From Moniliella sp. 'wahieum' (Eukaryota): a DNA stretch of 64,000 nt. The stretch covers positions 434,001 to 498,000 of the forward strand of contig RSEE01000011.1 in the NCBI GenBank assembly GCA_003971905.1, written 5' to 3'. Positions within the stretch are counted from its first letter, which is position 1. The number at the start of each line of letters is the position of its first letter. Positions 14,333-58,503 of the stretch are shown piece after piece. The notes under the pieces are model-generated. The model saw only the letters and a list, made by a program, of their open reading frames with translations. It was not told the origin of the DNA and did not search any database. A program made the position numbers and the translations under genes.

Positions 14333-16305
14333 ATGTCCACTGCCCCCCCGCAGCCCACCCCGCCAACATCAGCCAACCCCAATCGAGCCGCCGCCCTCGC
14401 CCCCTCCCTTGGTCCCACCATGCCTATTGGCTGGACAGCACCCCCGCCTGCCTCACCAAGCAGCCATCCTTCCTGGCCAACCGCTGGCCCGCTCCTGGCG
14501 TTGTCTCCCTTATCCCATCTACCCCCGCCTCTTCTCCAGGAGCCCCTGCTTCGTCTGCCCATCCCGCCCATTCTCCAGCCCCAGCGGCATGGGGATGTCC
14601 TCAGCCATGATCCACTCCCCCTTTGCTCCATCCATTCCAGTCCCCATCACCCCCGAGGCTCGGTGGACTACACGGTCGGATTGGTGGGTGCTCCCTTGGC
14701 CCAGCCCAAGGGCCTCCTGGTAGGCGGCCGACTCAACTGGTGTGACATGATTTGCCAAGCACTTGCCCAACAGTCCAATCCGCACATGGTTGTGCAAGAC
14801 CTGTTTCTGTTTATGTGCCGGCTCTTTCCTGAGATTCGCGAATGGGCGGTTGGCAAAGATTGGGAGGTTAGTTCTCGCCCGGTCGGTATGTCTTTAGTTG
14901 CTACCGTCTCATTGACTAACTTGGGCGGTTTATTTTCCTCTGTCTCCACAGGCCAAGGTTAAAAACCGTATCAAGTCCACGTTATCTATTAAAACTCATA
15001 TATTCTCCAAAGTTCCTCGCCCTTCCAATGTGCAGGGCAAAGGAGCCTGGTGGACCTTGACACCGGAAGCCCTTGCTGAATGGCGGCAGGGAAAGAAGGC
15101 TGTGGTGGTGCGCTGCCCACCAGGCACTCTCAATACGAACCCCCGATCAAACGCGACTGTCCAGGCTGCAGGTTCGGGCGGATCGACTCGTCCAAGCCCC
15201 AAGAAGAGTCGGGGGCATCCTCAGTCCCTTCCTACCAGTCGGTCAGCTAGCTTGTGCAACAGCCCTATTCCCCTCGTACCTGGTCCCAGTCCAGCATTGA
15301 CAAGCTCTGCTCCACCTCCACTTGGAAGTTGCCCCCCCTTTCCGATGGGGATCCAGCATCCCAATTCGTTCGGACTGGGCTACGATGGCAGGGTATTGCC
15401 TCCTTCAACCCACACTCTACAGCTGATTGATACGGCCAATCTAACCACCACCTCAGCACCCTCCCTTGGTCTGCACTTTGGTGAGGCAGCCTCGACGTTG
15501 GCATCCATCTCCAACTCGCCTCCCGCCCAATTTCATCCGTTCGTCCTGACGAAGAATCCGGCTCATCAACCATTGCAGGATCCTTTTTCCTGTGCGCCCT
15601 GTTGGCCCGCCATCACATCGCCCCCGTTGCCAAGTCCGCATTCCATCACGTACGTCGCGTATCTGATCCTACTCAACAAGTGCTTACCTGGCTATGCTAA
15701 CATGAATTGGTTCGGGTTCGGCTCGGTAGTGGCTCACCGGAAGGTGGTCTGGCACTGCGCCGGCCATCGTTGTTGCCCGATGGGTCTGGCCTCAGTACCA
15801 GTCCATCGTCTTCGCCGCAGCCGCCAAAGCCTAACCCGATGCGGGCCGAGATGGACGTGATATTTGGCTGGACGGGATCGGAGTCGTACGAGCACCGTGG
15901 CATGATCAATGATGGTACCCCATCTACCCTCTCTTTCCCTTCCACTTTGTCGGTTGACAATGCTTCCCCCTTGCTCGACTATGCGGCGGACCCGTACCCG
16001 TACCCGTACCCACCAGGAACAACCCAGGGGACAATGGTGTGCCCAGCCCAGTCCATTCCGACTCGAGCACAGAACCAAGTGTATGTACTACAGGGATGGA
16101 CAATCCCCTGGGGGAGCTCGACTCGCCCAGTGGACATCTCTTGTCCTTTGATGCCGATACAGGCGGATCCGATCTCTTCTTGTTTCATGGTATCCAACCT
16201 GATGGATGCGAGTGCGATACCAGCTCGTTTGTCAAACCGTTTGCCGCGGTGGACTACAGGGAGGAGAGCCCATTCACCCTCGGGCTCGCTCGCTCCGGGA
16301 ACTGA
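14333..16305 (+). CDS. Forkhead (winged-helix) transcription factor, Fox1-like
   Basis: Spliced domain: NWCDMICQALAQQSNPHMVVQDLF...GKDWE|AKVKNRIKSTLSIKTHIFSKVPRPSNVQGKGAWWTL, with an intron at 14867-14951. GKGxxW is the forkhead wing signature. A second intron lies near 15650-15730. Confidence 0.85.
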
Positions 16306-17366: not shown

Positions 17367-19543
17367 CTAGGGATGGCATGGAACAGACGACAATGTCTGG
17401 TAGCTTGCCACATTAGGCCGCCGCCGGATCGGGGTCAGCGGCGCGACAGGGACCGAGGCACGGGGCTGTTGGTCCCGTGTCATGGCCTGCAACGAACGCA
17501 ACAACGTATCCGACCACAGCGGTTCCGCCGCGTCGTTCGACTCGGACTGGCGGAACAGGTCCGCGAGCGGGTCGGTGCCATCCTGCGGTGCACGACGTAG
17601 TTCCTCCGAACGGCGCAGACCTAATTTGGTCCATACCTGGTCCAAGGCTTGCACTAGGTGGTGCACGTCGGCCGAGGTATGGCCCGGAGTCGGGGTGATG
17701 CGCAGACGTTCGTGACCCTTGGGCACAGTGGGGAAGTTGATCGGCTGAACGTAGCAGCCGTGTTCCTCGAGTAACAGATCCGATGCCGCCTTGGCCTTGG
17801 CCGCATCGCCAACGAGAACAGGCACAATGTGCGAAGGGTTGTGTTCGAGTGGAATGCCAGCCTGGCTTAGCAGACGGACCGTTTCGCGCGTACGGACTTG
17901 CTGCGCAATGCGCGACTCGTTGCTTTCCATCAACACTTCGACCGCCGTCCGGGCTCCGGTAACCACATGCGGCGGAAGCGTCGTACTAAAGATAAACTGA
18001 GGCGCATAGGAACGAATCATGTCGATAAACCGGTTGGATCCAGCAACATATCCACCCACGTTCCCGTACGCCTTGCCCAACGTGCCTGTGATGATGTCAA
18101 TCCGATCCATCAGCGTCGGCTTCTCCCCCGGCTGGGCACCACCGCGCACCTGCACATCCCAATCGAGATGTTCAGCAACACCAGCCCCACGCGGACCGTA
18201 CATCCCCCCGCATGCACCTCGTCCAAAAACGTTAACGCCCCGTACTTCTCTGCCAGCTCAATCGTCTTTTCAATGTGACCCACAGTACCCGACATGGAGT
18301 ACACCGATTCAAACGCGATTAGCTTCGGCACATCAATCGGGAGAGAAGCCAGTTTGGCTTCTAGGTCAGCCATATCGTTGTGCTTGTAGATCAACTTCTT
18401 GGAACGACCATGGCGGATGCCGTTGATCATACTCGCATGGTTCATCTCATCCGACAAGATCACACAATCCGGAAGCTTGGATCCCAAGAAGCCCAGCGTC
18501 GCATCGTTGGCAGCATAGCAGGAGCCAAAGACCAAAGCGCCATCCTTACGATGCAACTGCGCCAACCGTTCTTCCAGATCCTCCACCGCACTGTTGTGCC
18601 CGGCAATGTTGCGCGTACCACCGGCACCAGCTCCGTACTTGAACAAGGATTCTTGCATTGCCGCCAGCACACGAGGATGGCGGGACATGTTCTGGTAGTC
18701 GTTGGAACACCACACTGTGATCTCATACTCCTCGTTTTGAAGATGGCCACGAGGTGCGCGACCAGCAAGACGATTGATGTTGTTAAAGTACCGGTACGAC
18801 TTGTCGGTATGCTTGGCAGAGAGTTGGTTATGATAAAACAGTTCATAGTCGAATCCCGGCGCTTGCTTCAGCTCCGGAGCCGGGATCGGCCCGAGCCCCG
18901 AACCAGGCTTGCGCACTTGCTTCACCACCGCACGACGACGAGCAGCAGCGAGCTGGGCTTTGGCCTGGGCTGCCGCCTCGTCGGCCGGTTGAAGCGGGGC
19001 TTTCCCTTCGAGCGTCGCTTGCTCTACCGCGGCTGCCGCAGCGACGTGCGGACACTTGGACGCATCGCCATGGCCATTGGTCAGCACACCCTGCGTAGCG
19101 TGGATGCGTGACAGCTCGTCCGAGGGCGAGTCTTGGTCCAGGGGCGACGCTTGGCCAGCATGAGCCGAGGTGGACATGCTGCGGGCCTGACCAGCGCCGG
19201 CACCAGCAAAGGGGCACCCCGACGCGCGCGGCGAGGCGACTTTGTTGCTCTTGGCAAAAATGAGCGCATTGAGCGAGCCGCCGTACACAGCCGAACCAGC
19301 CGCAACGCTCATAGCAATCTCCTCGTGGCCCGGGATGGACGCGAGGTCGTACTGGCTCAGGTCAATCTGGTCACGGATGGCAGCCGACATGACGGGGCAG
19401 CGCTGGGCGCTGACGGCGAGACGGGTGGGGCCGCCCGGGATGAGGGCGGTGGTAGACATGGCACGCAGCTGGGCCATGGAGGTGTGGCCGAGGAACGGGC
19501 AGGATGTGCGCAGCGAGCGGAGCGCGTTCATGCTGCGGTCCAT
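17367..19543 (-). CDS. HEM1: Mitochondrial 5-aminolevulinate synthase; frameshift near 18205
   Basis: [66 protein letters not shown] (PLP lysine), [21 protein letters not shown]. Confidence 0.97.
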
Positions 19544-20816
19544 CGTGGAGGTGGGGGTGGTGGGGGGAGTGAGAGAGAGGGTGCAAGGGTGGCCGAGAAG
19601 AACCGGAGGGCGCTGGGGGGGTGCGGAGAAAAAGTGAATTGAAACAAAGCACCACGCTTCCCCAACACGGAGCAGGCAGCAGGCGGGCAGTGTGCTGCTA
19701 GGGCGCGGAGGCAGTGGCCGGGTGGCTCGTGGGGGACCGGTGATCGATGACCGAGCCTCGCCGAAAGGCACCAGGGCAGTGGCGAGGCGCGTGCGGTTAC
19801 TAATGGGCACAAGCGCCGCCCCGACACGGTCTCTGTCTGGGCCGGGTTGCCGCGGCGGCTGAAAAGGACCGGAGGCGGGGCAGCGCGCCTCGCCCGCCTC
19901 TGAGTAACTGGTACAGACATCTGACAGCCACTAGTCACATCTCCGCTGAGTCCATTTCGTCTTGGTGATCCGTTCGGCTGGCCTCGCCACTGCCTGGTTG
20001 CGACACGCGATACCCGTCTTCCCTTGGCCTGGATTCGACTCGATCCTTCCAGCCTTCGTCTGTCCTTGGCCAGTTACCGGTTACTAAAAACTGGCCTGAG
20101 TATTATACGCGCCTGCTTCTAGTTCCCCCCTTTCCCCTCATGTGGATAGGTAAGAAACTCGCGGCCATCATATCCCCACTTGAACCGGATACGAGTCGCT
20201 TGTATACCTGCTATCATACCTGTGCAATCACAATGCGCATGATGGCGGGTTAAGCGCCGCCGACTGAAAGATAGTGTCATAGAACAGTTTGGGAGTGGTG
20301 GGATATCCAACAGAGAGAGATACCTAAGATATGTTTAACCAGTGACTCTGCCGCCATTTATCGACCCCCCGAGATATGGTAGAGGGAAGAGTGAGAGTGA
20401 GGTCCGCAGCTCAAAATGCTCAATCCTAAGCTAAAAAAGTTAAGGTCCTTCACCATGTCGATCATCAATCGTGGAAACGTGATTCAGTGGACAACAGGAG
20501 GAAAAAGGAAATCGGTGCTCATCTGGAACGAAGGGAAGGGAAGTGAGGACAAGAGAGCTGGGGGACAAGCGGTAACGGTACAGAGTATATCTACTTCACG
20601 CCGGTCGGCAAGTACTCATCGGACAACCGGGTGCATCAAAGAGAGGATCAGGGAATGAGAGAGGAACAAAGACAAACGAAACAAGCGTCAAGGGAGCCAG
20701 GGACGTGAGAAAGGGAAGAAAAACGATGCTGAACGGAGGCGGGTCAAGAAACGTGTGCTTTTAGTACGGTAGGTCAATGGAAAAAAGGAGGTCCTGATGG
20801 TCGTTGGTCCATCAGC

Positions 20817-22671
20817 TCAGCTCAATGTGGAAAGAAGCTCACCCCCTTGACCAGCAAGGTAGTGGCCGACATCCTGGTAGAGTTCTACCAGTTCCTCGGG
20901 TTGAAGCCCCGCAATCGCCATCTCCAAGACCGACTTGACGGAAGAATGATGCTGGCGGATCAGGGCCGTGTAGTACGTATAAGCCCATAAGCCCATGAGG
21001 AACTGACAGTCAAACCGGTCGGTCAAGCCGCCATGACCAGGGATAGAATCACCAAAATCTTTGATCCCATAGGCGCGTTTGAACCCCGAGGCAAAGAACC
21101 CCCCAAACGGTCCGACGAGCGAAGCGAAGGAAGCCATGACTAGCGTGTGGAACTGGAAGAGCGTGTAGGGCACATGCGTGACTGCCGTACCACCCGTTAC
21201 AGGGCTCAGCAGAATCGTGGCCAGTGTTGCTGCCCACTGCGGTAGCGCAAAACTGTGCCAATGAAACGCGGGGTTGCGCTCGCAGGTCATCTGGCTCCAA
21301 GCGTTCTCCCCCAGCGATCTAGCAGGGCAGACCTGGATCATAATCATAAGGGAAATAAGTCAGTATGGTGCGTGGAGAGGGGGGGGGAAGGAGCGCTGCG
21401 AAAATGTAGGAGGTGAGAGAAGAAGACGAACCATGTAGTTAAAGTGCTGGAACAAAGAGCCCCAAAAGTAGGCAAAGATGACCGTGATGACAAACGCACC
21501 CACAAAGCCTTCTCGCGTCTTTTAGGGGAGAGGGAGATGAGTTGGGTACGCCCAAAGAGCATCCCGCACACGTAGGCAAAAACATCGTTGCAATGATCAG
21601 CGAGGCCGGTACCCAGAACCAGATGAGACCCTCCAAAATCGAGTTGACCATGAAATGGCTGCTGCCCACAATGAGGAAAAGCGTCATGTGGATCCAGGCA
21701 AAGAGGCCAAACTGGGTTTGGAGGTTGTCTCTTCGCAAATGAAGAATGAATGCCATGAACCCAAAGACGTAGAGCATTAGGCTCAGGAATCGATGGCTTT
21801 GAGCAAAGGGGACAAAGTAGACCGTCTCATCGTACACAATGGTTTCAGGTAGTACACCAACGATTCCCCATACAGGTAGTAGTTTGCAATGCTAAACATG
21901 TACCACGACAAGGTTTTGTTCCACATGGCTTTCCGAGCCGCTGGCTCGTCGTCTAGCGAAATGGGACCTCTACCAGGAAGGTCGAACAGATTGACAATCT
22001 CCTTGTACACAATGGTGGCCAAAACGGTAACCAATAAGATCATGTACGGGTGCCCCAGCAGCAAGAGCGTAATAAAGCCCCCAATCATTGCAAATGTAAG
22101 GATGGTACGTTGGTACACCTTGGTCCAGAAAGCTTCATTCGCCTGCCGCCTTTTCTGCTCCTCTGTTGCCTGTGCGTTGGCAACAGGAAGAGCATCCGCA
22201 GCCGAAGCGGCGGGAACGACAGTAGATTTTTTTGTACCTCTCGTGCAATGTGGTATCGCCAAAGTCGGCGAGGACAATTGGACCTTTCTTCTCACTCTCG
22301 GTAGGCATCAGCCCCTGTCGGGAGCAGGGGGGATGAGGGGTTGTACTGGGTGTAGGAGTGGTTCCCTCTTCAACGGCGTGGTGCAAATCCAGGGGCGAAT
22401 GCGGTGGGGAAAGAGCTCCGTCCCGCTCGGAAGATGATCCATGGGAGGGCGATGCGCTCCGCTGGGGTGAAAGGGGAATGAAGGGTCCCTGTGGTGCCTT
22501 CAACCAGAGATCCTTTCCCTCCGGATGCAGTGTTGGGGCTGTGGGAGCATCCAACACCACTTTTTCTTCTTTGGAAGAATGGGGCAGCGCCGAGGAGGGG
22601 AGGGGAAGGGAAGTGGAAGGGGGAGAGGAGTCTTCACCTTCAACGATCAGTGCTTCAAAGGGGTTGGGCAT
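20817..22671 (-). CDS. CDS1: Phosphatidate cytidylyltransferase (CDP-DAG synthase); intron plus several frameshifts
   Basis: LFGRTQLISLSPK and the signature FASLVGPFGGFFASGFKRAYGIKDFGDSIPGHGGLTDRFDCQ; multiple TM segments. Confidence 0.95.
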
Positions 22672-35300: not shown

Positions 35301-35510
35301 AAAGCGCAAAAGAACGAAGAGGCGTGGGCTGGTCACCGCCACGATCATCCGTGTCAACCGTTGGGGGGCCCAGCCAGCATGGAGAGGGGAGGGAGATACT
35401 ATATATACAAGACATGTGGCCAGACCGCAAGCAGAGAGCCCTCCGTCGTCCAGAGGAGACAACAAGAGCCATGCAGCGGCTGGGGAGGGAGAGACCATCC
35501 ACATGTTAGG

Positions 35511-37517
35511 TTAGGCCGTCTTTTTAGCGTCTGCCTTCTCATCCAGCTCATCGGATGGGGACATGGCATCAACAGCAGGCAGCATGTGCTGGTCGCCCAC
35601 ATGTTCAATCCCTTCTTCATCCTCGACCATTTCTTCCTGGCGGGAAGGACCATGTTCCGAGGTGCGCACCGCCGTTGTTGCACCAGCAATCGCATCCTTC
35701 TCAAAGTGCGCCCCATGTTCTTCCGGCCCACCACAATCACCGCCAACAAGTAAGCGCATACGACCCCGAGCAAAATCCCAGAAACCGTAGCGTAATCGGG
35801 CAAGGTACGTTCATTGTCCTTGCCCACCGGACGGGAAGGGTCGTATTCCGGATTGTCAATGCGAATTCCTTCTCCGCCCCGTGTCTCAATCTGGGCCGAA
35901 GAGGCCGAGACCATGTTGCCCAATTGGTACGCCAAGCCACTAAACGTCGCGCGAAAACCTGGGGGCGAGATTTCCGACAGGTAGACCGGCACGACGCCCC
36001 AGGCACCTTGAACCCCAAATTGGAGAAAGAACGCGCCGGCGGCCAACCCCCCAAAGCTCGAAGGTAAGATCCACGCTGGGATCAGCACGCCTGACAGAAT
36101 GACAAAGATGGCCATCGTCAGACGACGCCCGAGCCATTGGGAAATGTACCCGGCCAGCGTGCCCCCCACAATCGCACCACAGTTGGAAATAATGGTCGCT
36201 TTCGAGGCCAGCATGCTCCCTTCCTTGGCGGGCAAGTCGGCAAACTTGACCTTCTGAACCATGGTGGGGTAGAGGTCCTCTGTTGGGCGTTCCAGTCAGC
36301 CGTTCTTTTCCCGCAAGAAGAATACAAGATCAAAACAAGAAAAAGAGAGGAGGCAGTGGGCAACGTACGAGACGAATGACTGAGCCAGTTAAAGCCCGAC
36401 ATGAGCAAGATGCCATAGATGCATCGGACCCAATGTTCCTTGAGCATCGCCCACATATCCGACAAGAATTTGCGCACCTTGGATTGAGTCGTGGTATCGA
36501 TCCCAGCCTCTGCCGCTTCCTTTTGGGCTTTGTGGTATTCCAAAAACAGTTCCGACTCCCATACCACCCCCGCACCCCAGCGGAAAACAACGATAGCGCC
36601 GCCCCAAAGTAAAACAAGATCTTCCAGTTGTTGGTCCGGTTGACCACCGATACATTGACCGAGGCGGCCAACAGGTAGCCAAGCGCGTAACATTGCTGCA
36701 ACAAACCACTAAACAACCCACGCGGTGCGACTGGCATGTTTTCCAGCGCGGTGGCCGTGGACATGCCCCAGATGCCACCTGATTGTAGGTGGGTTGAGAC
36801 GAGGTGGGGAGACTCACACAGTTAGTCGTCACTGTATAGAGACGCTTCCTCCTCCATCACCCGCACCGCCTCTGTGTGCTCGTTTCCTCCGCCTACTCTT
36901 TGTCGTGAAAGACAAAGGGATACAAAGAGCACAGAGAGACAAGAGGAAAGCTGACGTACCCATGAAAATGCCAAAGAGGGAGCGGACCGCCAGGAACGGT
37001 CCATAACTCTTGCAGTATGTGGTGGCGAGCGACAAGGCCGAGACGCAGAGCAAGTTGAAGCAGAGGGGCCACTTGCGGCCAAAGCGATCGGAAATCAAGC
37101 CAAAGATGGCGGCGCCCAGAGGGCGGAAGAAGCGTAAGCGTGATAGAGGTAGTAATGTCGTTGGTGGATTTGTTGTATAGGACCGAAAGACGCGTGCTGG
37201 CCAAACTGACAGAAAAAAAGGGAAAAACAGGAACGGTGATGGTCTGAATGCCCCTATTTGTAAAAGGTGGGGGAGACCGACGATACGCTTCTCTTTTTCT
37301 GTTGTCCTTCAACCTCGCAAGTGACTTATGAAGTAGCGGGAGGGCAGAAGGGTTGTCCAATCACGTGAAAGACATTGCCAGGCTCACCAGCAAGGCGGGA
37401 ACTAGAGCAGGTGTGGAGAACAGGACAGGAAATCATCCGAGTCATTGGACGACCATGAATGGGCAACATTGGGGGAACCCGTAGCTGTGCAATCGTTGTC
37501 AGGTGACGGTTGCTCAT
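35511..37517 (-). CDS. JEN1: MFS carboxylic acid (lactate/sialate:H+) symporter, JEN1-like; introns plus frameshifts
   Basis: ITTSITLTL, SDRFGRKWPL, ATALENMPVAPRGLFSGLLQQ, SQWLGRR, QFGVQGAWGVVPVYLSEISPPGFRATFSGLAYQLGNMVSASSAQIE. Start uncertain. Confidence 0.88.
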
Positions 37518-37612: not shown

Positions 37613-38419
37613 TCATGGGGTGCGTATTAGCCCCCCATCTGCCAGAGTTGTCAATAGACATATGAGGCTGAACTGGCTCGCTTGCATCTCTTCGACCGCC
37701 TCCTGTTGATTAGGCGTGCTAATGGAACTGGCTGCAGAATTGATGGGCAACGGTGCCTCGTTCTCTGGGAAAGACTGAGAGCATCTTGTAATATAAGGGG
37801 ATGATCTGGAAGGGGAAGAGAAAGCCGAAGAGCTGCCGTCATTCTCGATAGAGGGAGATGATGGTGGGGTGGCGTTGCTTGTCCCGTCTGGGGCACGGCG
37901 TGGGGTCAAGTGGGCCATGACCCAGGTTACACGCACGGTGGGGCTGGGTGCTTGACTGAGGGGGGCGGTATCATCGCGGCTTGGCTTAGGGGAACGAGAA
38001 GGTTCATCTTGAATACGGAGTTGAAGGGCTGCGGTGGCTTGCCGGGGCCGGATGAGCTTGAATCTCAGGACGCGGTGAATTCCCTCGTACACCAAGCAGT
38101 TGAACATCACCCGCCCTCATCGAGGTAGAAGTAATGGTACTGCGCGCATCGAGCAACAGTCCCCCAAAGGGTCTGCATGGTGTTGCCCGTGGTGACGCGC
38201 ATTGTGCCGTAGGCCTTGCCTGTTTCGAGCAAGCGACGGATGGGACGGAGAGTAGGTTCAGAAGCCTCGATGATCTCCCGAACGTCCTCGTCGTCGTAAG
38301 TCCGTCGAGCGGGGCAAGCAGCGATGGCAGACCTTCGATACTGGCGAGCATGGCGCTTGGCACCTCGCGCGGCGCAAGGCTGCGTAACGGCACAGAGGAA
38401 TGCGGTTACCGGCGTCCAT
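37613..38419 (-). CDS. Hypothetical protein, possibly a homeodomain-less paralog of the neighbouring HD genes
   Basis: ORFs 38258..38488, 38107..38532 and 37613..38110 join across frameshifts. The LWG...YEGIHRVL segment weakly resembles LWG...YEGLREIV of the adjacent HD gene. Confidence 0.4.
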
Positions 38420-39023
38420 ATTAGGTGTTGGGGTATGGTATGGTGAGGTAGTGTGGTATTGTGAATGGAGGGGTAAGGCAAAGGGCACGACAGGCGAAAG
38501 GGGGGATTATGTGGGGAGCAAAAGGGTTGCATAATGTGTCATGTAAACTAAGAGAGGCGTGCCAAATTATAATCCAAAAAAACTCTATAACTCACAGCAG
38601 CGTTCGACATATAGAAGCGAGCCAGACACGCACAAGCGAAGATGCAGAAGCGTGCACTAATAAACGAAAAAGAAAAACATTGAGGCGCTAGTGAAGCTAG
38701 TGAAGAGGGTGCCAAGTGTGACTATACGGAACGCTACGAGCAATACGAGATGAGCTTCAAGGCGTACTACGAGAAGGCCGGCAGTCACACAGACATAAAA
38801 AGTTGTCCACGCAAGCTGCATTGCGAAGTGCAACTTGAGAACAGGGAGAACAGAGGCACACCTTCAAGTCATACGAGAAGGCAGGGCAGGCAGCCACAAG
38901 TCCTTTTCAAGCGAGCTGAAGGAAACGAGAAATGGCAAGGGAAGCGATTCAGCGCAAACAAAGGGAGATTCCGCAGCCCGCGCACAGAACGAATCAACAG
39001 TCGAGCCAGCGAGCGTCACCCAC

Positions 39024-40283
39024 TCATTGGGGAGTGTTCATGGCAGGGTCACTGGGGTTCGGAATACCGACATCGCCCAAAATGGAGTTGGGGAACTCAT
39101 GGCCGTTGACAAACTGTTGGGAAAATTCATCCGCATTCGGGCCCGAATCGTCGAAATTATTTTCGGCGGGGTTAGGCTGACCTTGAATACTGGCTAACTC
39201 GGGAGCGGAGAATGTATTGCACAACCACAACCGACGGCTGGATGCCCACCACACGGTCAGAATCCAAAACAGCAACAACAAAGGTATTAGGAAAACTCAC
39301 ACGGCGTCCTCATCCGGCAAGACAAGATCAGGGTTGTCCCTCTTTGCAGCGCTGAATATGTTGTTACAAGCAACCATTTGCTGCTCCGAGTTCCTTCCCT
39401 CACTGCCTTCATTTGCCTCTTTCCCCAGATCTTGACTCTCACTTTCACTCGACTTTCTTTTGTGCCCGAGGATGCTCCCGGCCCGCACACTCGATTCTTC
39501 GTTATTGCTGGAGGGTTTGGAGCGGTGCCGCTTGTTCTGATACTGTATCATTCCACACATGGGGGTTAGACTGTTGCTCTTTCACACCACCCTTGGTCTC
39601 ACCCACGAGAGGAGCGCCGCCAAAGCGTACCCAGTCATTAACTTGTTTGTAGCTAATCCCAATCATCTGACTGAGTCTGTGCTGCTCAGCCTTGGTAGGA
39701 GCCCTGCACAATTTGTAGGACTTCAAACAGAATTTGGCGCTTATCGTCGGGTATGTTCTCCCTTTTGCACGTAAGGGAGTTGTCGTCCTCCCCATCCCCT
39801 GGTTGAGAATGGGAGCAAAGAAATTGAGCCAGTATGCCACATTGAAGAGATCGCCCACTAGGACCTCAACCTCGACGCGTAGTTAATAATGTTGTGACAT
39901 GGGCCCAAAGACCTGTTCTTCGCCAATCGGCCGGCTGTTGCCCTCACGAACCCGAATTACCTGTGACAAGTCCTTGACTATCTCCCGAAGGCCCTCGTAG
40001 GCGTACTGGCAAGCACACTTGCAAATATTGTCGACCTGGAGCTGATTGAAATGGTTGATGCCGAAAGCGTCCCTGATGCCCCATAGTTGGGAGCGAAACT
40101 GGACCATGCGGGGACGAAGCCAATGCATGCACCGGTCGCGAAATTCGTTCTGTATGTCAAGGTTCGAATGGTGTTCACTTCCAGCATTCGGTTCCGTCCA
40201 TGGCGTGCTCGGTGTCGTGTTTGAATTCGGGATCGGGCGCGGGTTGGGGTGTGGTGGTCAGACAAAGGGAAGAGCGCGATCAA
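39024..40283 (-). CDS. Homeodomain transcription factor, HD2/bW-like (copy A)
   Basis: KSYKLCRAPTKAEQHRLSQMIGISYKQVNDW | intron 39543-39630 (GTACGC..CTAAC..CAG) | YQNKRHRSK gives helix 3 WYQNKR. Start and end approximate. Confidence 0.85.
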
Positions 40284-41383
40284 GGGACGTTGGGATGGCT
40301 TGCGATGGGGAGAGGAAGAGAGAGGATATGGATGTGGACGAGCCAGGAGCGAGATTGGGATGGACGAGGTCTCTGCTTAATAGGTTTACCTTCGAACCCT
40401 TTTGAGCAGTAAAGCCCCCCTACACTGCGCAGAATCAAGTGCCCCTCAGATTGAGAGGCTTTTGACATGTCTTTATTATCAAACCAAAACGGCTATGCTG
40501 CTACCTCACCCCATTCCCTCTGGCTACGAGAGAGCACTTCCTACAGTGCTGTTGTGCCTGATGTACCACCATCATATAACCGGGGTGGGCCTCACTGTGA
40601 GAGAATACGAGTTTCAACAGCCAACCGCATAGGCCACTAGGCAAGTGTTGCTCAGGCTCCACAGTTATCGCCCTCCGCCCAACGGCGCACTGGGCGAGCC
40701 GACTTTTCCCGCACAAGGTCAGAGAGAAATCACTGCCCTCTCACAAGCACATAGTTGCGCCTTGCCTTTTGTCATATTTCCCTACTGATTATTGTAAGAG
40801 TGTCGTTCATTTTCCGTTCATACTCTTTGGCCACACCAATGCGCATTATCTTCTTCGTGTCGTGACGGTGGAGAATCGGGGTGGATACAGGTGTTGTTCA
40901 TGGGGAAGGTTGCAACCGTGTGGATAGGGAAGACGTGAGAGGTGGCGACCGTTTGTTGTGGTCAATCATATAATAGTGTTCCAACCGTAGCGTCAGACTA
41001 TGCGTGCCCGTATTAGCTCCATATACTTATTGAGCAAGAGCAGAAGGACAGAGGGAAAGAAAAGGACTTGGGAATTGATGTGCCATCAGTGTGCTACTAT
41101 CGAACTGACAATCCGTCGGAATACATCCGCACTCTTCTTTTAGGTGATGAAAAAGATGTTGAATGAGAGCAGAAAATTGCGGGGTATTAGACTTAAGAAG
41201 TGGGTGAAGCCAAGGTCAAACGGAAGGAGATAAGAAGAAACATGCTTGGACCCCAACATTCACAGGTCGTTCACTTATGGCGGGGCTGATCCGCTGCGGG
41301 AACTTCTAGTATCTCCGGCGAACTCGGTCGCGCAAGAAGACGGTCTTGACGCAAATGGGAAGAGTATTTGTAAGGAAGTTGAC

Positions 41384-43113
41384 TTATTGGTGCTCAACCA
41401 CGCTAGTCTCATCCAAACGTGAGTAGGACATCCGGCTGCCATCTCCACACTGTGTTGTGATGAAGGCAGTGTTTGGAGGGGGAGGGGTTAGAGGTGATGA
41501 GCCTGGTTGAAATGCGTCGGGGGAATAAGGGTGGGCATGCTGGGCGCCTGGCATAGATGATGTGCAGGGGGGCAAAAGGATTGCGCGCGTGCCAATGCTG
41601 AGAAGAATTTGGGATGAAAGAGAAGGGTACACTTGTCAAGGCCCCTGGGGGATCTGATGACTCACTCCACGGCTTATGTGCCGTAACCAAAGTCCAGTGC
41701 CCATTTTCGCCGGAAGGGAGGCTGGAGCTGGAACTAAGGCAATGGTGGGGGGGCGAAGTGGGAATCTGGAGCATGTTCCAACACACCTAAGTCGACCGGA
41801 CCACCATCATCACAGATAGTAGGAGCTTGAGGGCTAAACCCACTCAAGTAGCGTTGGGATTCGGGTGATCTGGAGAGGGATGGTCCGTGGCTGAGATACA
41901 TTGGCGCCATGCCCATAAAGCTGTTGTCAGAAACCGTGGTGGAACGCGCGCAAACAGAGCAGAATCCCGGTCAAAAGCAGTTGCTAAGAGGCGCGGGAGA
42001 GAAACATACTCGCCCTGCTCGAGATTGTCTTTGCTCGAGAATTTGGTCGTAATTTCATGAGGGGGGGGCAGGTCCCTTTTACCACGGTTTCCCCAATCGT
42101 ATTGAGCCTCCTCATTCCCTTCTTCCTCTGTGTCTTGCAGAGCCTCTTGCTCATAATCATTTTGTCCTCTTGCATCTCTTCCTCATCTTGGTTCCCCTGA
42201 AATTCGTAACTGTCTCTACCCCGTTCAGGGATGCTCGACGAAGGCAGGCGAGCGAGACGGGATGCCATCAGGAGCCTTTGATTGCGTTCTATTGTTGGCC
42301 CGCTTGGCTTGTTTTTTCCCTTTGATGGAGTTGGAGCGGTGTCGCTGATTCTGTAGCTATGTGCTCTCATGTTAGTGCTTCCTATCATCCATTTTGTGGA
42401 CGTGCCGTGACGGTCGAGAATAACGTACCCAAGCGGTAACCTGTGCTCGTCGGAGTCTCGTCAGGTCGCTGAGGACCTGTTGTTCGGCCCATGTAGAATG
42501 CGGGGAGAGGGTAAACGCATATTTCAGAATAGCGACGGCTTGTTGGGGATGAATCGGCCGGAGACGCTGCCGGTTTGCTTGCTGGACCCTGCCCGCAGGC
42601 GCTTGAGAGATGAGGTTGGTTTGTCGGACCACATCCAACAGGGGAGACATAACCTCGTCAGAAAACATAGAGGGTAAGGTCTCCACAAAAGAAAGGAAGA
42701 CTGCTCGGCTGCTGAGCGTCGTGCTCCCTTGGCTGGCGCACATGGCTTGGAGTAGGTCAGGCAGGAGTTGGTGAAGGCTTGGATGGCGTACTGGTAGGCA
42801 TGCTGATGACCCTTCGACTTGGGGGACAACGGGTTAAGTGATGCCGTCGTCTTCAGGCCAGAGCGGAAGCGTCGGCAGGGAGCGAAGGGCATCGTTACAC
42901 ATATCGTGGAAGGCAGCTTCAATCTGGGACTGATGTGAGGGCTCAAAGAGAACTGGCTTGGGGTGCCGTTGGTAATATAAGTTCTGGTGGTGGTATCATT
43001 GTGGGTGTTGACCGTTGGCAGGGCGGGTGGAGGTGGAGGTGGAAGTTTCTCACGGAGTAAAAGAGCGATGCTTTGGAGAGACGAAGAACCCCTGCTGGAG
43101 GGGAGATGGCATC
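41384..43113 (-). CDS. Homeodomain transcription factor, HD2/bW-like (copy B)
   Basis: RLRPIHPQQAVAILKYAFTLSPHSTWAEQQVLSDLTRLRRAQVTAW | intron 42357-42428 (GTACGT..CTAAC..TAG) | LQNQRHRSN gives helix 3 WLQNQR. An acidic region follows. Start and end approximate. Confidence 0.85.
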
Positions 43114-44142
43114 ATGGCGGGGGCATGAAGCCAAAAGTTGTGAGGGCTGAAGATTCTGTTAGGGGTGCTGGCTGTGGGTGGGCAAAAGCTCCAGTGCGAG
43201 TTCAGAAGCCTTTCAAGTAGATGGACTATATAGATGTCAAGCTACCACTAGCCCCCGCGCCCGAGCTGAGAGGCTGTTGAGAACGTTGATGAGGTTCCAA
43301 CATAGTATTACAGGGCCGGTAGCCCCTCTTGCAATTGATTGTGTTTGATTTACACTGCCCCCGCGCCGCGTCTCCTTCAGCGTGACGACAGGCATTTTAT
43401 ACTTAGTTGGTTGTGCGGAGCTCACTACAACAGCAGCTGGACAACCTGTCACATGTCAGACCTGACACTACTTACCTCATCCTCACCCTCCCGGATCGGC
43501 AATGAAGATCCCACTTCTTCCTGGCCAATCCGAGAGATCAACACAATTACAACACAACACAATCACAAGGCCTGCGATCTCGGGCCCCACAGCCCGGCGA
43601 CGATGAAGACTCTCTCCTGAGATCTGAGATCCATAGGAGTTTTTTTTGTCTCGATGCCTGAACTCTTGCACCCCGTTAACCGCTAAAAGGCTTGGCCCGC
43701 CGAGAAAAGAGGGGTGCGCCAGGAATGGAAGACCCGCTGGCGCGGCTCGGTTGTGTCCTGTGTATACCCTTGGGTGGATGATATGAGTTCGATGAGTGCC
43801 TTTTGTTGTTGCACAATGCAAACCGGCAGACACAAGCACCTGGCACAATAACCCTATCTCGTGACTGCGCCTGTGATGGAAGCCCGCGGCGACCGGTGAC
43901 ATCAGACGAATGATCGATGACGGGAGTTTTTCACCACGCCAAAATGAATGTCACAATTGGCGCGGCCTGGTTCCGGGCGGGTGAGAGGCGCAGCAGCGAT
44001 TGGCTTTGGGGAGGCTGCCGATTGCCGGCCGATTGCCGATTGGATTGGCGCGGGTTGCGGTCTCCTATCTTGGTCACTGGTCTCGCCACCGCCACCGCTC
44101 CCACCCCCCGCCGCCGTCGACTCTGCCCCCCAGTGCGCGGGC

Positions 44143-47100
44143 ATGTCCAAGTTCGTCAGCAGGCCATCCGACCGCGATGACTTCCAAGCCCTGACCCAGT
44201 CTCTCCTCCGCCGCGACTCGATCGAGGGCCCGAACCATGAGGCGCGCCAGTCCGGTCTCCTCCCGCCCAGCGACGAGTATTCCCGTCCTTCCAGCCTCGC
44301 CGACCCGCACTTCTCGTCCGGCCAGCTTCCACCGGCGCAACTCGGAAACGATTTGCCCCGGGCGGCCGCATCGTCGGCTGCGTCTCCCGGTCCTGCTGCG
44401 CCTGATTTGGAGGAGGACCGCCCTGCTCGGCGGGCAGGAGGATGGGCATTCGCTACCACATGCCCGGGGTACGGTGCCCTGGATAGCGACCCGGCCGGCG
44501 AAAATGCTCCCCTTCCCTCCCGCCATGGCAAGAAGGGCGTCACATTTGAGCCCGGTGTGAAAGCAGATGGGTCCGACAAGAAACGCAAGATGGGTTTGCA
44601 ACGAGAAAATTCCTTTTCCCCGACGACGTTGCTCCGCCCCGCCGGCCCACCATCCCAAAGCGGGCGGCAATGATCTCCCCTGCTGAGTATGCGCCGAGGA
44701 AACTGGGGACGTGGGACGGGTGTTTATGCCGGTCAGCTGAATGTATGTGTCTTGCTCGTGGGGAGGCACGCTGGCTCGGCCGAGCGGTACTAACGCTGTT
44801 ATGTCCATGCAGATCCTCGGTATCATTCTCTTTCTTCGCTTTGGCTTCATTATTGGCCAAGTTGGGCTGCTGGGTGCGTTTGGGTTGCTGGTGGTCAGCT
44901 ACGCAATTGATACCCTGACCGCCATGTCGCTCAATGCAATTAGCACCAACGGTCAAGTGCGTGGCGGTGGGGCGTACTACCCTCATCTCCCGCAGTCTCG
45001 GACCCGAGTTTGGCGGGAGCATTGGCCTTATCTTTTTTGCTGGTCAAGCGTTGAACGCTGCCATGACGTGCTTGGGTTTGTGGAGAGCTTGACTGATGCG
45101 TATGGCGAGTCGAGGATGTCCGATGGTCTGCCCGAGGGTCCAATCTGGCTCTTCTTCTATGGAAGCCTGTTGCTCTTGCTCTGCATGCTCGTCTGTCTTG
45201 TCGGAAGCCGGCTCTTTGCCCGCGCCACACTCGGTCTCGCTGTCTCCTCTCTGCTGCCATCCTCTCCATCCCCCTTTCCAGCATTGCCGTGCACCCCTTC
45301 CGCGACGCCGAGCGGGGCGCGTACTTTACCGGTGGTCACTGGCCACGTTGAAAGCCAACTGCTTCCCGCACTTTACCTCGGGGGCCGCCGGTCCTCGACG
45401 GGGGACAAACCCGAGAGCTGGCAGTCGGTCTTTGGCGTGCTCTTCCCTGCTGTCAATGGATCCTAGCTGGGGCCAGTATGTCTGGCGACCTGCGCAAGCC
45501 GAGCAAGTCGATCCCCAAGGGCACCAACTGGTCCTTGGTCTTCACGTTCATCATCTACCTCGGCACTTTTATCATCCTTGCCTCGACGGTGGATCGTCAA
45601 AGCTTTTACAGCGACGCTGGGATCGTGAATGACATTGCGCTCAGTCCGCAACTGATCACGTTTGGCGCATTGGCCTCGACGGCATTTTCAACCTTGATGG
45701 GCGTCTTGGCGTGTGCCAAGGTGCTCCAGGCGATCGCACGGGACAACCTGCTTCCGGTACTCAATGTCTTTGCCCAAGGCACTGAGGTCAGCGATACACC
45801 CCTACGCCATCTTGATCACTTACCTCTTTTGCCAGCTGGTCTTGGTGGTCGATTCGGTCAATGCGTTGGCGCAGCTCGTGACCATGACGACGCTGTTGAC
45901 GTTTGGTACGCTGTGCTTTGCCACGGCTGCCTTGAAGGCTGGGGGTGCGCCCAGCTTCCGGCCCTCGTTCCGGTACTGGAACATTTACACTGCCTGGGGC
46001 GGCACGCTGATCAGCTTTGGCGCCATGTTCTTCACGGATTGGTGGGCGGCGCTCGAATGCCTCGTGTTGACCTTTGGCTTGTTTGTTGCGGTGCACATCT
46101 ATGCGCCGCCCAAACCGTGGGGCGACGTGACGCGCAACTTGAACTACTACATCTCGCGTCGTCAGATGCTGCGGATCGATGAGCGGAAAGGCCATGTCAA
46201 GTATTGGCGTCCGCAAGTGCTGCTGTTGGCCAACAATCCCCGCACCGAATGGAACACGATCATCTTCTGCAACGCCCTCAAAAAAGGTTCCCTCTACGTC
46301 TTGGGCCACGTGCTCAAGGGCGACTTTGCCGAATGCCTGTCCGAGCTGAAACAGCAAAACGTATCGTGGCTCAAGCTGATTGACTTGACGGGCATCAAGT
46401 CGTTTGTCGACATTGTCATTGCGCGTGACGAGCGCGAGGGAGCACGCAACTTGATTCTATCCTGTGGCTTGGGCGGGATGCGACCCAACATTGTTGTGAT
46501 GGGCTTTCCGTCGCACATGCAGTTCCCACTCCGGATGATCCACGGCAAAAATCCTTGGTCGCCGGGTCGGACGAGAGCGAGATTACGATCCGCGGGATGG
46601 CGAGCCCGACCGAGGAAAGTGAGGAAGAGAATCCGCAAGGCTACATGACTTTGGACGTGGAAGAGCTGCCGACGGACCAGGCGCGACGCGAAACCCCCAT
46701 TCGAGCCCAAGCGTTTGTTGGCATCATGGAGGACACGTTGGCGCTCAACAAGAGTTTTGCCATTGCCTATGGCTTTTCGCACCTGGACACATCGGTCACC
46801 CAAGCGCTTCATCCGACCCATGGTGCCGGCTCCTGGTTCTCCTCGTCCCCCTCGCACAGTGGGGGAGAAGAAGTACCTCGACTTGTGGCCGGTGCAGATT
46901 GCCAGTACGGAACCTGGGAACGATCAGTCGCGCACCTGGGACAGTTACACCATGGTCTTGCATTTGGGCACGATCTTGAGCATGACCGGTGCCTGGAAGC
47001 GGCATCAGTTACGGGTGAATGTGTTTGTCGAGGTGCCTGAGCAAGTGGAGGAAGAACGGGTCGGATCCAGAGTTTGCTGGACAATTTGCGTGTCCGGGCG

Positions 47101-48285
47101 GAGCTCCGATGTTTTGTCTGCGCACGGCCCAGGTGAATGCGTACGAGGCGATCGTGTTGGGTCACAGAGCGTCGGAGCGGATCGAACGGGCGTTGGAGTT
47201 GGATCCGTGGTGGGAGACGTTGAAGGAACTGCGCAAGGAAGATGCCCGGCGCTCGACGTGCCCAAGCGGCGCTTTCGAAAAAACGCGTGTCTACGACGGA
47301 CCGGACGAGCAGCCCAGCACGCCGTACGCGCAAACAACAAAATCTGTTCGGCTTCACCCTCCCGCCCGAGCATATGGCTTACTTTAAACGCAACATCCAA
47401 ATTGGCCTCGCCCACCCCAAGGCGCGCCCCGTCTGTCCACCAGCTCCGACGCCGACTCCTCCAGCTCGGGAAGCGAGTCGGATCGGACAGCGACCTGAGC
47501 GACGAGCTCTACCACCTCTTCGACCCGGACCAATGGGGCAGTAGTGGCAGCCCCGCTCCCAGTCCCAGATTGCCGCCCCTGGCGGGGGAATTACGACCGG
47601 CCGATCGAGTACGTTCGATACTAATACTACGCGCAAACGCCACAAGGCCGGTCGCAGAGCATGTCCGCTTCCCTGGCCCGAAGGGTGCATACGGTGGAGG
47701 AGCCGCGGGCGCGGGCCCGGCCCTCGTTTCCTCCGCGTTCATCGTCCCGCTCGAGTCTGAGGCGGACCAGGACGGGGACGCGACGATGCGCGGGACGGGG
47801 CCAAGCGTGCGGTCCTCGTTTTCCTCTTCGTCCTCTGCGTCTGGGACTGCGGTGCATACGCGCGGAGGGGACAAGCAGGCTGGAGCGAGGGGGAGCAGGG
47901 GGCGGGGAGGTGGACGTGGAGGCGCAAGCGAGCGAGGCCGGATCGGGAGCGGGGACGGGCGGTCGTCTTCGCGGGCTGCGCTCTCGCAACATGCGCTACG
48001 GATCTCCCACGCCAGACGCGGCGGGCCTCCGCTCATCTCGTTCAACGACTTGCCCAACAAGGCGCAGTATCTGATTCTCACGAGCTCATCCGCACCCCAC
48101 TCGTCGGTGGCGGGGGGGACGAGTGTGGTGCTGACGGCGCTGCCCGCCCAGGCGAGGCGGGGGACGGCGGAGGACGAGCTGCGGTCGCTGCGGTACCTCA
48201 AGCTGCTGCACACGCTGTTTGGGCGGGGGGGGCCGCCGGTGCTGGGGGTGCATGCCAAGACGATGACAATGACAATGACGCGTAG
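44143..48285 (+). CDS. VHC1: Cation-chloride cotransporter (SLC12/CCC family), vacuolar VHC1-like; many frameshifts
   Basis: PRKLGTWDG, ILGIILFLRFGFIIGQ, AISTNGQVRGGGAYY, MSGDLRKPSKSIP, LQAIARDNL, HVKYWRPQVLLL, CGLGGMRPN, SFNDLPNKAQYLIL. Confidence 0.92.
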
Positions 48286-49353
48286 CCCCACGCGGGCAGC
48301 GCAGACATGGACAGCCGCCAAAAGCGCAATTCCAAGTCGCTGCTTATTCGGCAGCCGATCCCCCAACCGTAGTATGTGCGCCGGCATGCATGCAGCCGCG
48401 CCTTAATTCCGCCCGCCCCCACCGGGGCGCTGGGCCCGGCCCGCAGCCCATCGGAATTGTTTGTGGGGGCGCGGGGCAGCGCAAGCGCAGTGTGGGGGGG
48501 CGGTGTCGGTTGACGTGTGATGCATGACGCCGGGGGTTTGATTGGCCGCGGCGGAATGCGGGGGAGGGTGATGCGTGCGATGTGATGGATGGGTGATGTC
48601 GGCTGGCGGCGCTGGGCGGGTGGGGTGGGGTCGGGTGGGCTCAGGGTGCAGCGGCAGGAGGCGTTGGGCGTCTGGGGCTTTTGGCTTGGGCTGCTTGCCC
48701 CGCTGGACAGAATTCCATCTGGGTTGGGACGCAGCGCGGCGTGGAGCGCTGCCAGTGCGGGGCCACTGCGTCCTGGCTGGGCCACCGCCCGTGCACCGTG
48801 CCTGCCCTCCCACACGCCCACTCCTGCGCCGTCTCAGCGGCGTGTCTGCAGTCCTGTGCCTGCCTCCCGCATCCCTCGGTCGGTCGGTCGGTCGGTCGGT
48901 CGCCATCGTCCTCACGTACACATGCGACACGCTGTCCCAGGGTGCGCACACCCCCCAGCCACCCCGCCAGTCCCACAGCGCCGGGGCCGGAGAGGCTGGG
49001 CGCCCATCCCCACCCACGCTGGCCCTCTGCCGCGTCACCCGTCGCCACGGCCACGCTGCTCATCGATCAGACCCATCCTCCAGTATGCGTCATCGTAGTC
49101 ATCCATCATCCATCACCTATTCCATATCACTCATCCATCACCCCATCCATCCGCCTCACCGCTCGCCCCCCCTCACGCATCCATCAGCCATGCATCAGCG
49201 TCAACTCCCTGCGCAGCGCTTGCCACCTCCCCACTCCCCCCCCTGCTTGCTCCAACTCGCCGCCACCATCGCCACCGCCGCCACCATCGCCACCACCCCA
49301 CCTCATCCACCCTCCCCTCCCCCTCTCCCGTCCTCCTTGCTAGCCCTGTCGCC

Positions 49354-57852: not shown

Positions 57853-58503
57853 TCATACGTGGCCATGCACGGCCGTGGAAGGCGCACGTTGGGCCAAGTG
57901 CCGTTCAACAAGGTGGACGTTGCGTGCATTCGCTCCCCACACGGCGAGGAATATATCCCTACCAGTGGAATGAGGTCAACCGCACACCCAACCATCGCAT
58001 TAAACTTCATCCGATCCACCGTGCCCGACGGCAAACTGGATAGGGCCAGGTCAGCACTGCTCTGCGCCTCACTGCATCGACAAAGGGAGAGAATACGCAC
58101 TCAAAAGTTTCTTTTGCTGGTTGATGACGAGGTAGTAGTTTAGCGCACCATTCGCGGCAGTGCCAACGTAGGGGAATATGCCCAGGATGGCGGTGTATCC
58201 AAACCGGAGCCCGGCGATACGGATGCCACGGTCGAGGCGATGTGCGTGCTTGGCAATTTCTTCCACACCTTCTCTTCGTGCGGGTTAACCCAGGGAGGGG
58301 CGCGTTTGCGACGCTTCTGCTTGCCCTTGGCATCTTGGTAGTACTCGTAGAAGGGTCCTGATGACAAGACTCATGTTAGTGGGATGAGGCGCTGGGCTTC
58401 GCTGGACGCTGGCTGCGCTGCCCCGGAAGGCACATACTTCGGGGTGGTACTTGGCGGCGTACTTGTCTGCCTGGTTTTTGGCGACGGAGGTCCAGATGGC
58501 CAT
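57853..58503 (-). CDS. DUF4112 family membrane protein; intron and frameshifts
   Basis: AHRLDRGIRIAGLRFGYTAILGIFPYVG, AVDLIPLVG and ANARNVHLVERHL match DUF4112 motifs. Confidence 0.8.

Follow-up and report, generated by a model that had tools for sequence, protein, structure and literature searches.

Two tandem homeobox paralogues, probably of the HD2 (bW) mating-type class, without a linked bE gene in a 64-kb window of Moniliella DNA

The mating-type homeodomain (HD) gene bE, of the HD1 class, normally lies beside the HD2 gene bW and is divergently transcribed from it. Here we describe two homeobox genes, A and B, that lie on one strand of a 64,000-nucleotide stretch of Moniliella sp. 'wahieum' DNA (assembly GCA_003971905.1, contig RSEE01000011.1, positions 434,001 to 498,000; the window hereafter means this whole stretch, with positions counted from its first letter). 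In the reading that we consider probable, they are intron-containing same-strand paralogues of the HD2 (bW) mating-type class, a lineage-specific tandem duplicate with an altered recognition helix. The closest described systems are those of the Ustilaginomycotina, for which Kijpornyongpan & Aime (2020) present bE and bW alignments from 16 genomes (PMC7766764, supplement Fig. S2). As presented there, bE adjoins bW in all 16 genomes; bE carries a TALE insertion (P-F/Y-P-S/T) and the helix 3 W-F-I-N-A/T-R-R-R-S-G-W, whereas bW is typically spaced, and its helix 3 (Q-V-T-I-W-F-Q-N-R-R-N-R-K) is near-invariant, with I47, F49, R52 and R53 of the recognition helix invariant in 16 of 16 rows. The same source gives three bE copies for Meira miltonrushii and, for Tilletiaria and Malassezia among others, bW or bE proteins that are truncated.

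Neither tandem HD2 genes nor same-strand HD genes are unprecedented as such. As described in PMC8305134, the locus for mating type (MAT) in Agaricus bisporus H97 likewise has two HD2 genes head to tail on one strand, explained there as two ancestral HD1-HD2 pairs, one of them minus its HD1; unlike the A/B locus, it retains one HD1, divergent from the HD2 pair, has the canonical motif and belongs to another subphylum. In the account of PMC6730849, the haploid MAT loci of Cryptococcus neoformans MATa (SXI2a) and Trichosporonales A1 (SXI2) also carry HD2 only, with HD1 on the opposite mating type, but theirs is a single HD2 fused with pheromone and receptor genes within about 50-100 kb. Closest by subphylum is the HD locus of Kalmanozyma brasiliensis, another Ustilaginomycotina locus with two same-strand homeodomain genes as reported in PMC10262431; that pair is bE plus bW, whereas the spacing of A and B is of HD2 type and both have Q50. 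In the limited set of literature searched, no bW-bW tandem lacking bE was reported for Ustilaginomycotina. Compared with known bW loci, the A/B locus stands apart in having two tandem copies, no adjacent bE and none of the known b-locus neighbours.

As the original prediction had proposed, A and B are oriented alike on the minus strand and each encodes a homeodomain split by an intron immediately after Trp48 (coordinates of all features are given in Table 1). In both genes an exon ends in the Trp48 codon, and the intron behind it runs from GTACG(C/T) through a CTAAC branch site to AG; the next exon reads x-Q-N-x-R-H-R-S, so that the intron is in phase 0 between homeodomain codons 48 and 49. 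In gene A, the terminal TGG (39631-39633) is followed by an 88-nt intron (GTACGC...TCTAAC...ACAG), and the next exon opens at 39542 with Y-Q-N-K-R-H-R-S; in gene B, the TGG at 42429-42431 is followed by a 72-nt intron (GTACGT...CACTAAC...ATAG), and the next exon opens at 42356 with L-Q-N-Q-R-H-R-S. From these splice signals and the restored motif we infer that both introns are removed, giving the helix 3 sequences W-Y-Q-N-K-R-H-R-S (A) and W-L-Q-N-Q-R-H-R-S (B), which keep W48, Q50, N51, R53 and R55 and, as also predicted, replace F49 with Y (A) or L (B). Both domains have the typical 60-residue spacing, without the three extra residues that the TALE insertion places between helices 1 and 2. 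The literature searched gave no statement on an intron at W48 in canonical bW genes.

Scored as unspliced exons only, that is, with the domain in pieces, gene A matched Pfam Homeodomain (PF00046) at E = 0.006 with 16.8 bits (cut-off 22.9) over profile positions 17-47 of 57, its matches to Homeobox_KN and Homeodomain spanning E = 0.006-0.008, under cut-off, and gene B had no Pfam homeodomain match. A profile of the two exons, run against 1.84 billion proteins, retrieved six proteins at E ≤ 0.001, and all six, of chytrid, nematode and unnamed origin, are multi-homeodomain proteins, none of them close enough to be useful in an alignment. On a local hidden Markov model (HMM) made from the homeodomain copies of the proteins retrieved by this profile, the spliced domains scored 47.4 bits (A) and 35.0 bits (B), against shuffle maxima of 3.5 and 7.2 (n = 500), with the post-intron residues adding +13.6 and +9.8 bits, respectively. 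The absolute scores are circular, because the HMM was built from matches to the A+B profile; the gain from splicing is independent, because the post-intron residues are absent from the query profile. A and B are almost certainly real homeodomain genes.

The two genes also resemble each other. Over the ungapped homeodomain they are identical at 17 of 60 residues, a number that none of 20,000 shuffles reached (maximum 13), and at the DNA level they match at 20 of 23 nt in helix 3 and at 14 of 16 nt in an N-terminal QYA motif. Four states common to A and B (Q31, S35, H54, S56) differ from the majority in the published bW alignment, and the region immediately before the homeodomain can be aligned between them. 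A second intron lies in a near-identical place, the first intron of gene A falling 13 residues after QYA and a candidate short intron of gene B 14-15 residues after it. The shared N-terminal region of the original prediction was drawn from two motifs, of which one is frame-secure: QYA held, whereas the IEAAFHDMC motif of gene B lies in a frame that joins the rest of the gene only through a frameshift. Because they have common derived residues and two common intron positions, A and B are very probably paralogues, and tandem duplication of a bW-type gene within the lineage is the most likely explanation of their likenesses.

What these paralogues descend from was judged against the genes of the host's relatives. 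An exon of the neighbouring SLC12 gene is 79% identical to its counterpart in Tilletiaria anomala and 73-76% identical to those of Pseudozyma, Thecaphora, Testicularia, Ustilago and Sporisorium, with lower identity to Malassezia and Mixia. By this similarity the window is that of a Ustilaginomycotina basidiomycete without a close relative in the protein collection, and bE/bW are therefore the right yardstick. Counting by eye on the published 16-row alignment, we took the 30 bW positions at which 14 or more rows agree. Gene B keeps 19 of them (H8, A12, I15, L16, A19, F20, T27, A29, E30, L34, T38, L40, Q44, V45, W48, Q50, N51, R53, R55), including all nine that we judged bW-specific, and loses 11 (E17, N25, I26, K31, G39, P42, R43, I47, F49, R52, N54); it also has the bW majority residues V13, A14, P24 and T46, and it bears the bW-type signature of helix 2 and that of helix 1 (H8/A12-V13-A14-I15-L16/A19-F20). 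Counted back from W48, its aromatic residue at 20 and T27-x-A29-E30 are placed as in the 16 bW rows and not as in bE. Two further residues of gene B, Y18 and H54, occur among those rows only in the twelfth, that of Tilletiaria anomala, which is also the nearest relative by the SLC12 gene. By the same manual count gene A keeps 13 of the 30 positions and loses 17.

Relative to the published bE sequences, neither gene has the TALE insertion or the bE-type helix 3, both have Q50 in place of I50, and R55-S56 is common to both genes and bE. That gene A is a diverged bE is ruled out by its spacing and Q50. On this comparison we hold with considerable confidence that gene B is bW-derived, and gene A probably is too. 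As in the Ustilaginomycotina bW proteins described, the 60-residue homeodomain of A and B follows an N-terminal region of 100-150 residues. Gene B ends soon after the domain, with its stop 43 residues past Trp48, and in this it is like the short, divergent bW reported for Tilletiaria anomala (PMC7766764), and a further likeness is that neither A nor B has a C-terminal LDFDDL-type motif. The helix 3 of both departs from the I-W-F-Q-N-R-R-N-R-K that is invariant in the survey.

No HD1-like open reading frame (ORF) had been noticed nearby, and wider scans bore this out. Among 121 stop-to-stop ORFs of at least 35 residues in 38400-44000, Pfam detected no homeodomain outside A and B at E ≤ 0.05 and no Ustilago mating family, and six-frame scans of the whole 64 kb for motifs of bE (its helix 3, PFPS..K and the C-terminal motif) returned none. 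The spacer between gene B and the SLC12 gene, the usual place of a bE transcribed divergently, is only about 830 nt, too short for a bE gene. bE is absent beside A and B, and the absence holds for the 64-kb window; that HD1 is absent from the whole genome is unlikely. The Pfam families found in window ORFs of at least 120 residues were BCAS2, longin, forkhead, ALAS, CDS1, major facilitator superfamily (MFS), SLC12, L31e, Sua5, SUZ and UCH, without STE3, and a search of CAAX ORFs returned no pheromone precursor near the locus.

The surroundings of gene A do contain candidate regulatory sites. In smuts the pheromone response element, the site of Prf1, is ACAAAGGGA (motif and role as given in Kellner et al. 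2011; PMC3248468). The window holds four exact copies against 0.64 expected, a count reached in 0 of 100 shuffles, in a test that was post hoc, made after the locus had been seen. Three of the four lie within 36.9-40.3 kb, and with one mismatch allowed the window has 27 elements against 13.9 expected. Two exact elements bracket gene A, where about 0.014 would be expected in that 1.4 kb; no exact copy lies upstream of gene B. These motifs, which are evidence of the sequence and not of its occupancy, lend modest support to a putative mating-related role of gene A.

Taken as HD2-class tandem duplicates, A and B would have arisen when a bW gene was duplicated in tandem in this lineage, with later divergence of both copies, A more than B, and with changes in the recognition helix of F49 to Y or L, R52 to K or Q and N54 to H. 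Because W48, Q50, N51, R53 and R55 are kept, DNA binding through helix 3 has most likely been preserved in both proteins. The elements flanking gene A suggest that it may be switched on by a Prf1-type pheromone response, as smut mating-type genes are, and a bE (HD1) partner would be unlinked to A and B. That the A/B locus is the HD MAT locus of the species, from which bE would have been lost or moved away, comes close to an even chance without reaching it. It is very improbable that it is the sole HD MAT locus, with bE lost from the genome and A and B pairing with each other in the role of bE; if true, a pheromone-induced HD2-HD2 heterodimer encoded on one haplotype would mean a self-compatible fungus, or development uncoupled from mating.

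Several observations weigh against descent from bW with a role in mating. No bE lies beside A or B, compared with an adjacent bE in 16 of 16 published genomes, and both genes break three of the four invariant helix 3 positions of the bW alignment (I47, F49 and R52). Neither a DEAD-box helicase nor c1d1/nat1 was found among window ORFs of at least 120 residues compared with Pfam. The bW likeness is a hand comparison and not a scored alignment or tree, and the nine "bW-specific" positions are a matter of judgement; the bW helix-1 pattern, which in a six-frame scan of the window matched gene B alone with 0 matches in 30 shuffles, had left position 17 open after gene B was seen to be without the invariant E17, and the helix-2 pattern had been relaxed so as to accept Q31. 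The response element test carries its post hoc character with it, and to our knowledge use of the element outside Ustilaginales is not established. Word-based searches of longer proteins with the A exon and the B exon (the latter to E = 10) returned nothing, the A+B profile found no Ustilaginomycotina protein at E ≤ 0.001 and no orthologue among the 1.84 billion proteins, and sequence searches of PDB with both exons gave no homeodomain. The nearest upstream ATG of gene A (40201) is one base out of frame, the sole flaw in that gene, and for gene B the choice is between a 41-nt intron, implausible at that length, and one to three corrections of frame. Finally, GC content at third codon positions (GC3) is 0.59-0.64 in A and B compared with 0.67-0.78 in neighbouring genes.

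Some of these points are softened by what is known of such genes. MAT homeodomain proteins evolve fast, and the truncated A+B query needed about 40 bits to pass in the profile search, so the lack of an orthologue fits a fast-evolving bW derivative. The usual b-locus neighbours in Ustilaginales are c1d1 and nat1. A DEAD-box helicase lies close to bW/bE in the majority of the 16 surveyed species, and synteny fails in six (PMC7766764).

A substantial possibility, well short of probable, is that A and B are paralogues outside MAT: a normal divergent bE/bW pair would lie elsewhere in the genome, and A and B would be surplus bW duplicates evolving freely or towards a new role. All 16 surveyed Ustilaginomycotina keep adjacent bE/bW and a near-invariant bW helix 3, and A and B break that helix and have neither an adjacent bE nor the usual b-locus neighbours in the window; moreover, changes in HD copy number do occur in the subphylum, as in the three bE genes listed for Meira miltonrushii. 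However, Y18 and H54 of gene B match the Tilletiaria anomala row alone among the aligned bW proteins, a pattern that an orthologue from that lineage should show, little weight attaches to the missing neighbours given that b synteny is, on the published survey, not conserved outside Ustilaginales, and pheromone response elements flank gene A.

We consider it quite unlikely that the genes are decaying relics, the remnant of a b locus whose lineage is asexual or homothallic, with bE already lost and the bW copies pseudogenes or becoming so. The frame problems at the start of A and in the N-terminal part of B, the end of B 43 residues past W48, the relaxed helix 3 core, the GC3 below that of neighbouring genes and the failure to find an orthologue would all suit decay, and truncated forms of bW or bE are on record for Tilletiaria and Malassezia, among others. 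However, frameshifts arise in the assembly itself. The reading frame of the SLC12 gene shifts between 45801 and 45803, with no space for an intron, where the Tilletiaria homologue is continuous at residues 431 to 433, and the gene has several intron-less frame changes in 44650-47430; ALAS (17370-19930) and CDS1 (20820-22307) are likewise each divided between frames. With roughly one or more indel errors in every kb, the assembly seems not to have been polished, and the breaks in A and B, no more than expected, are therefore not readable as pseudogenisation. Gene A, moreover, keeps an open frame across its three in-frame introns for 330 codons, up to a single stop at 39024, and codon-position GC has the coding pattern (GC2 below GC1 and GC3) in four of its four exons in the chosen frames; both genes retain W48, Q50, N51, R53 and R55.

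That A and B form a homeobox pair peculiar to this lineage and without relation to bW, with a likeness merely generic between typical homeodomains, is improbable: no database search tied them to bW, gene A keeps only 13 of the 30 conserved positions, many of them generic homeodomain positions, and their look-alikes in a protein atlas searched by language model are generic homeodomain clusters with low scores (0.76-0.80), to be taken as leads only, but gene B matches the aligned bW proteins where generic homeodomains differ (H8, A12-I15, A19, A29, T38, T46, set against the Pfam consensus), no other place in the window matches the bW helix-1 pattern, and the lack of any orthologue among 1.84 billion proteins argues against a conserved non-MAT family, because a conserved factor would have been found. 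The original prediction had offered an HD2-only MAT-derived locus and an unrelated homeobox array side by side; the host, the spacing, the bW signature of gene B, the paralogy of A and B and the lack of bE in the window favour the first. A and B as two alleles collapsed into a tandem are ruled out by an identity of only 17 of 60 homeodomain residues.

If A and B are tandem HD2-class genes, their importance lies in the contrast with what the Ustilaginomycotina survey describes in 16 of 16 species, in which self/non-self recognition after fusion rests on linked bE/bW and a near-invariant bW helix (PMC7766764). A tandem of bW-derived genes whose helix 3 is altered and to which no bE is linked would be a new arrangement in the subphylum. 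Three histories could yield it, namely loss of HD1, as in Cryptococcus and Trichosporonales, duplication of a sublocus, of the kind known from mushrooms, or co-option of a MAT gene for a different function. The locus offers a concrete place to study how a two-component HD system is dismantled or rewired as breeding systems change.

Table 1. Features of the A/B locus and its surroundings (window positions).
Feature	Position	Strand	Remarks
Gene A	39024..40201	-	four exons, three GT..AG introns; coding-signal and open-frame check
Gene A exons	39961-40201, 39631-39870, 39301-39542, 39024-39237	-	
Gene A introns	39871-39960, 39543-39630, 39238-39300	-	GT..AG
Gene A homeodomain	39507..39774	-	residues 1-48, 39631-39774; 49-60, 39507-39542
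Gene B	42225..43115	-	ATG at 43115, stop 42225-42227; N-terminal frame uncertain
Gene B introns	42984-43053, 42701-42741, 42357-42428	-	42701-42741 is a 41-nt candidate
Gene B last exon	42228-42356	-	
Gene B homeodomain	42321..42572	-	residues 1-48, 42429-42572; 49-60, 42321-42356
Exact pheromone response element	40262..40270	+	61 nt upstream of gene A candidate ATG
Exact pheromone response element	38958..38966	+	about 60 nt downstream of gene A stop
Other exact copies of the element	36912-36920, 58080-58088		
Spacer, gene B stop to gene A start	40202..42224		no homeodomain or bE-like ORF
Spacer, gene B start to first ATG of SLC12/VHC1 ORF	43116..43947		about 830 nt; no homeodomain ORF
MFS transporter	35402..37308	-	Pfam Sugar_tr; in pieces across frames
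SLC12 cation-chloride cotransporter (VHC1-like)	43948..48406	+	intron-less frame changes

The N-terminal part of gene B can be read in two ways. A model without frame correction needs the 41-nt intron and gives a Pro/Ser/Thr-rich N-terminus; codon-position GC favours the frames of the original prediction, in which the N-terminal motif and QYA lie in different frames, with a shift near 42836. The 41-nt GT..AG interval falls within one or two codons of the position of the first intron of gene A; too short for a usual fungal intron, it may have been shortened by deletion errors. Downstream of the gene B stop, open pieces of 80-125 codons in various frames occupy 41384-42182 on the minus strand, with no family match. 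Given the indel errors, the true gene B could be longer than its 43-residue tail implies. Gene A has a basic patch, H-K-R-K-S, about 21 residues past the homeodomain (39460-39474, minus strand); it may be a nuclear localisation signal, and it recalls the K/R-K-R-K patch found 35-45 residues past the domain in most of the bW rows.

A few further matches were set aside. The PDB matches to D-Ala-D-Ala ligase and VP16 (both E = 0.2) are chance, as is the sole locus returned from metagenomes (L001, 1976-2158), which lies within a prokaryote-like MFS transporter gene but in another frame. A possible third homeodomain at 26053, picked out by a Q-N-Q-R-K-R match, is without homeodomain context. Of the flanking genes named in the original prediction, VHC1 stands, as an SLC12 cotransporter; the other flank, there called JEN1, is an MFS transporter that matches Pfam Sugar_tr. 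About 24 kb from the pair, an ORF at 14916-15857 on the plus strand has a weak Forkhead match (E = 7.6e-5, below cut-off) and may be another transcription factor gene.

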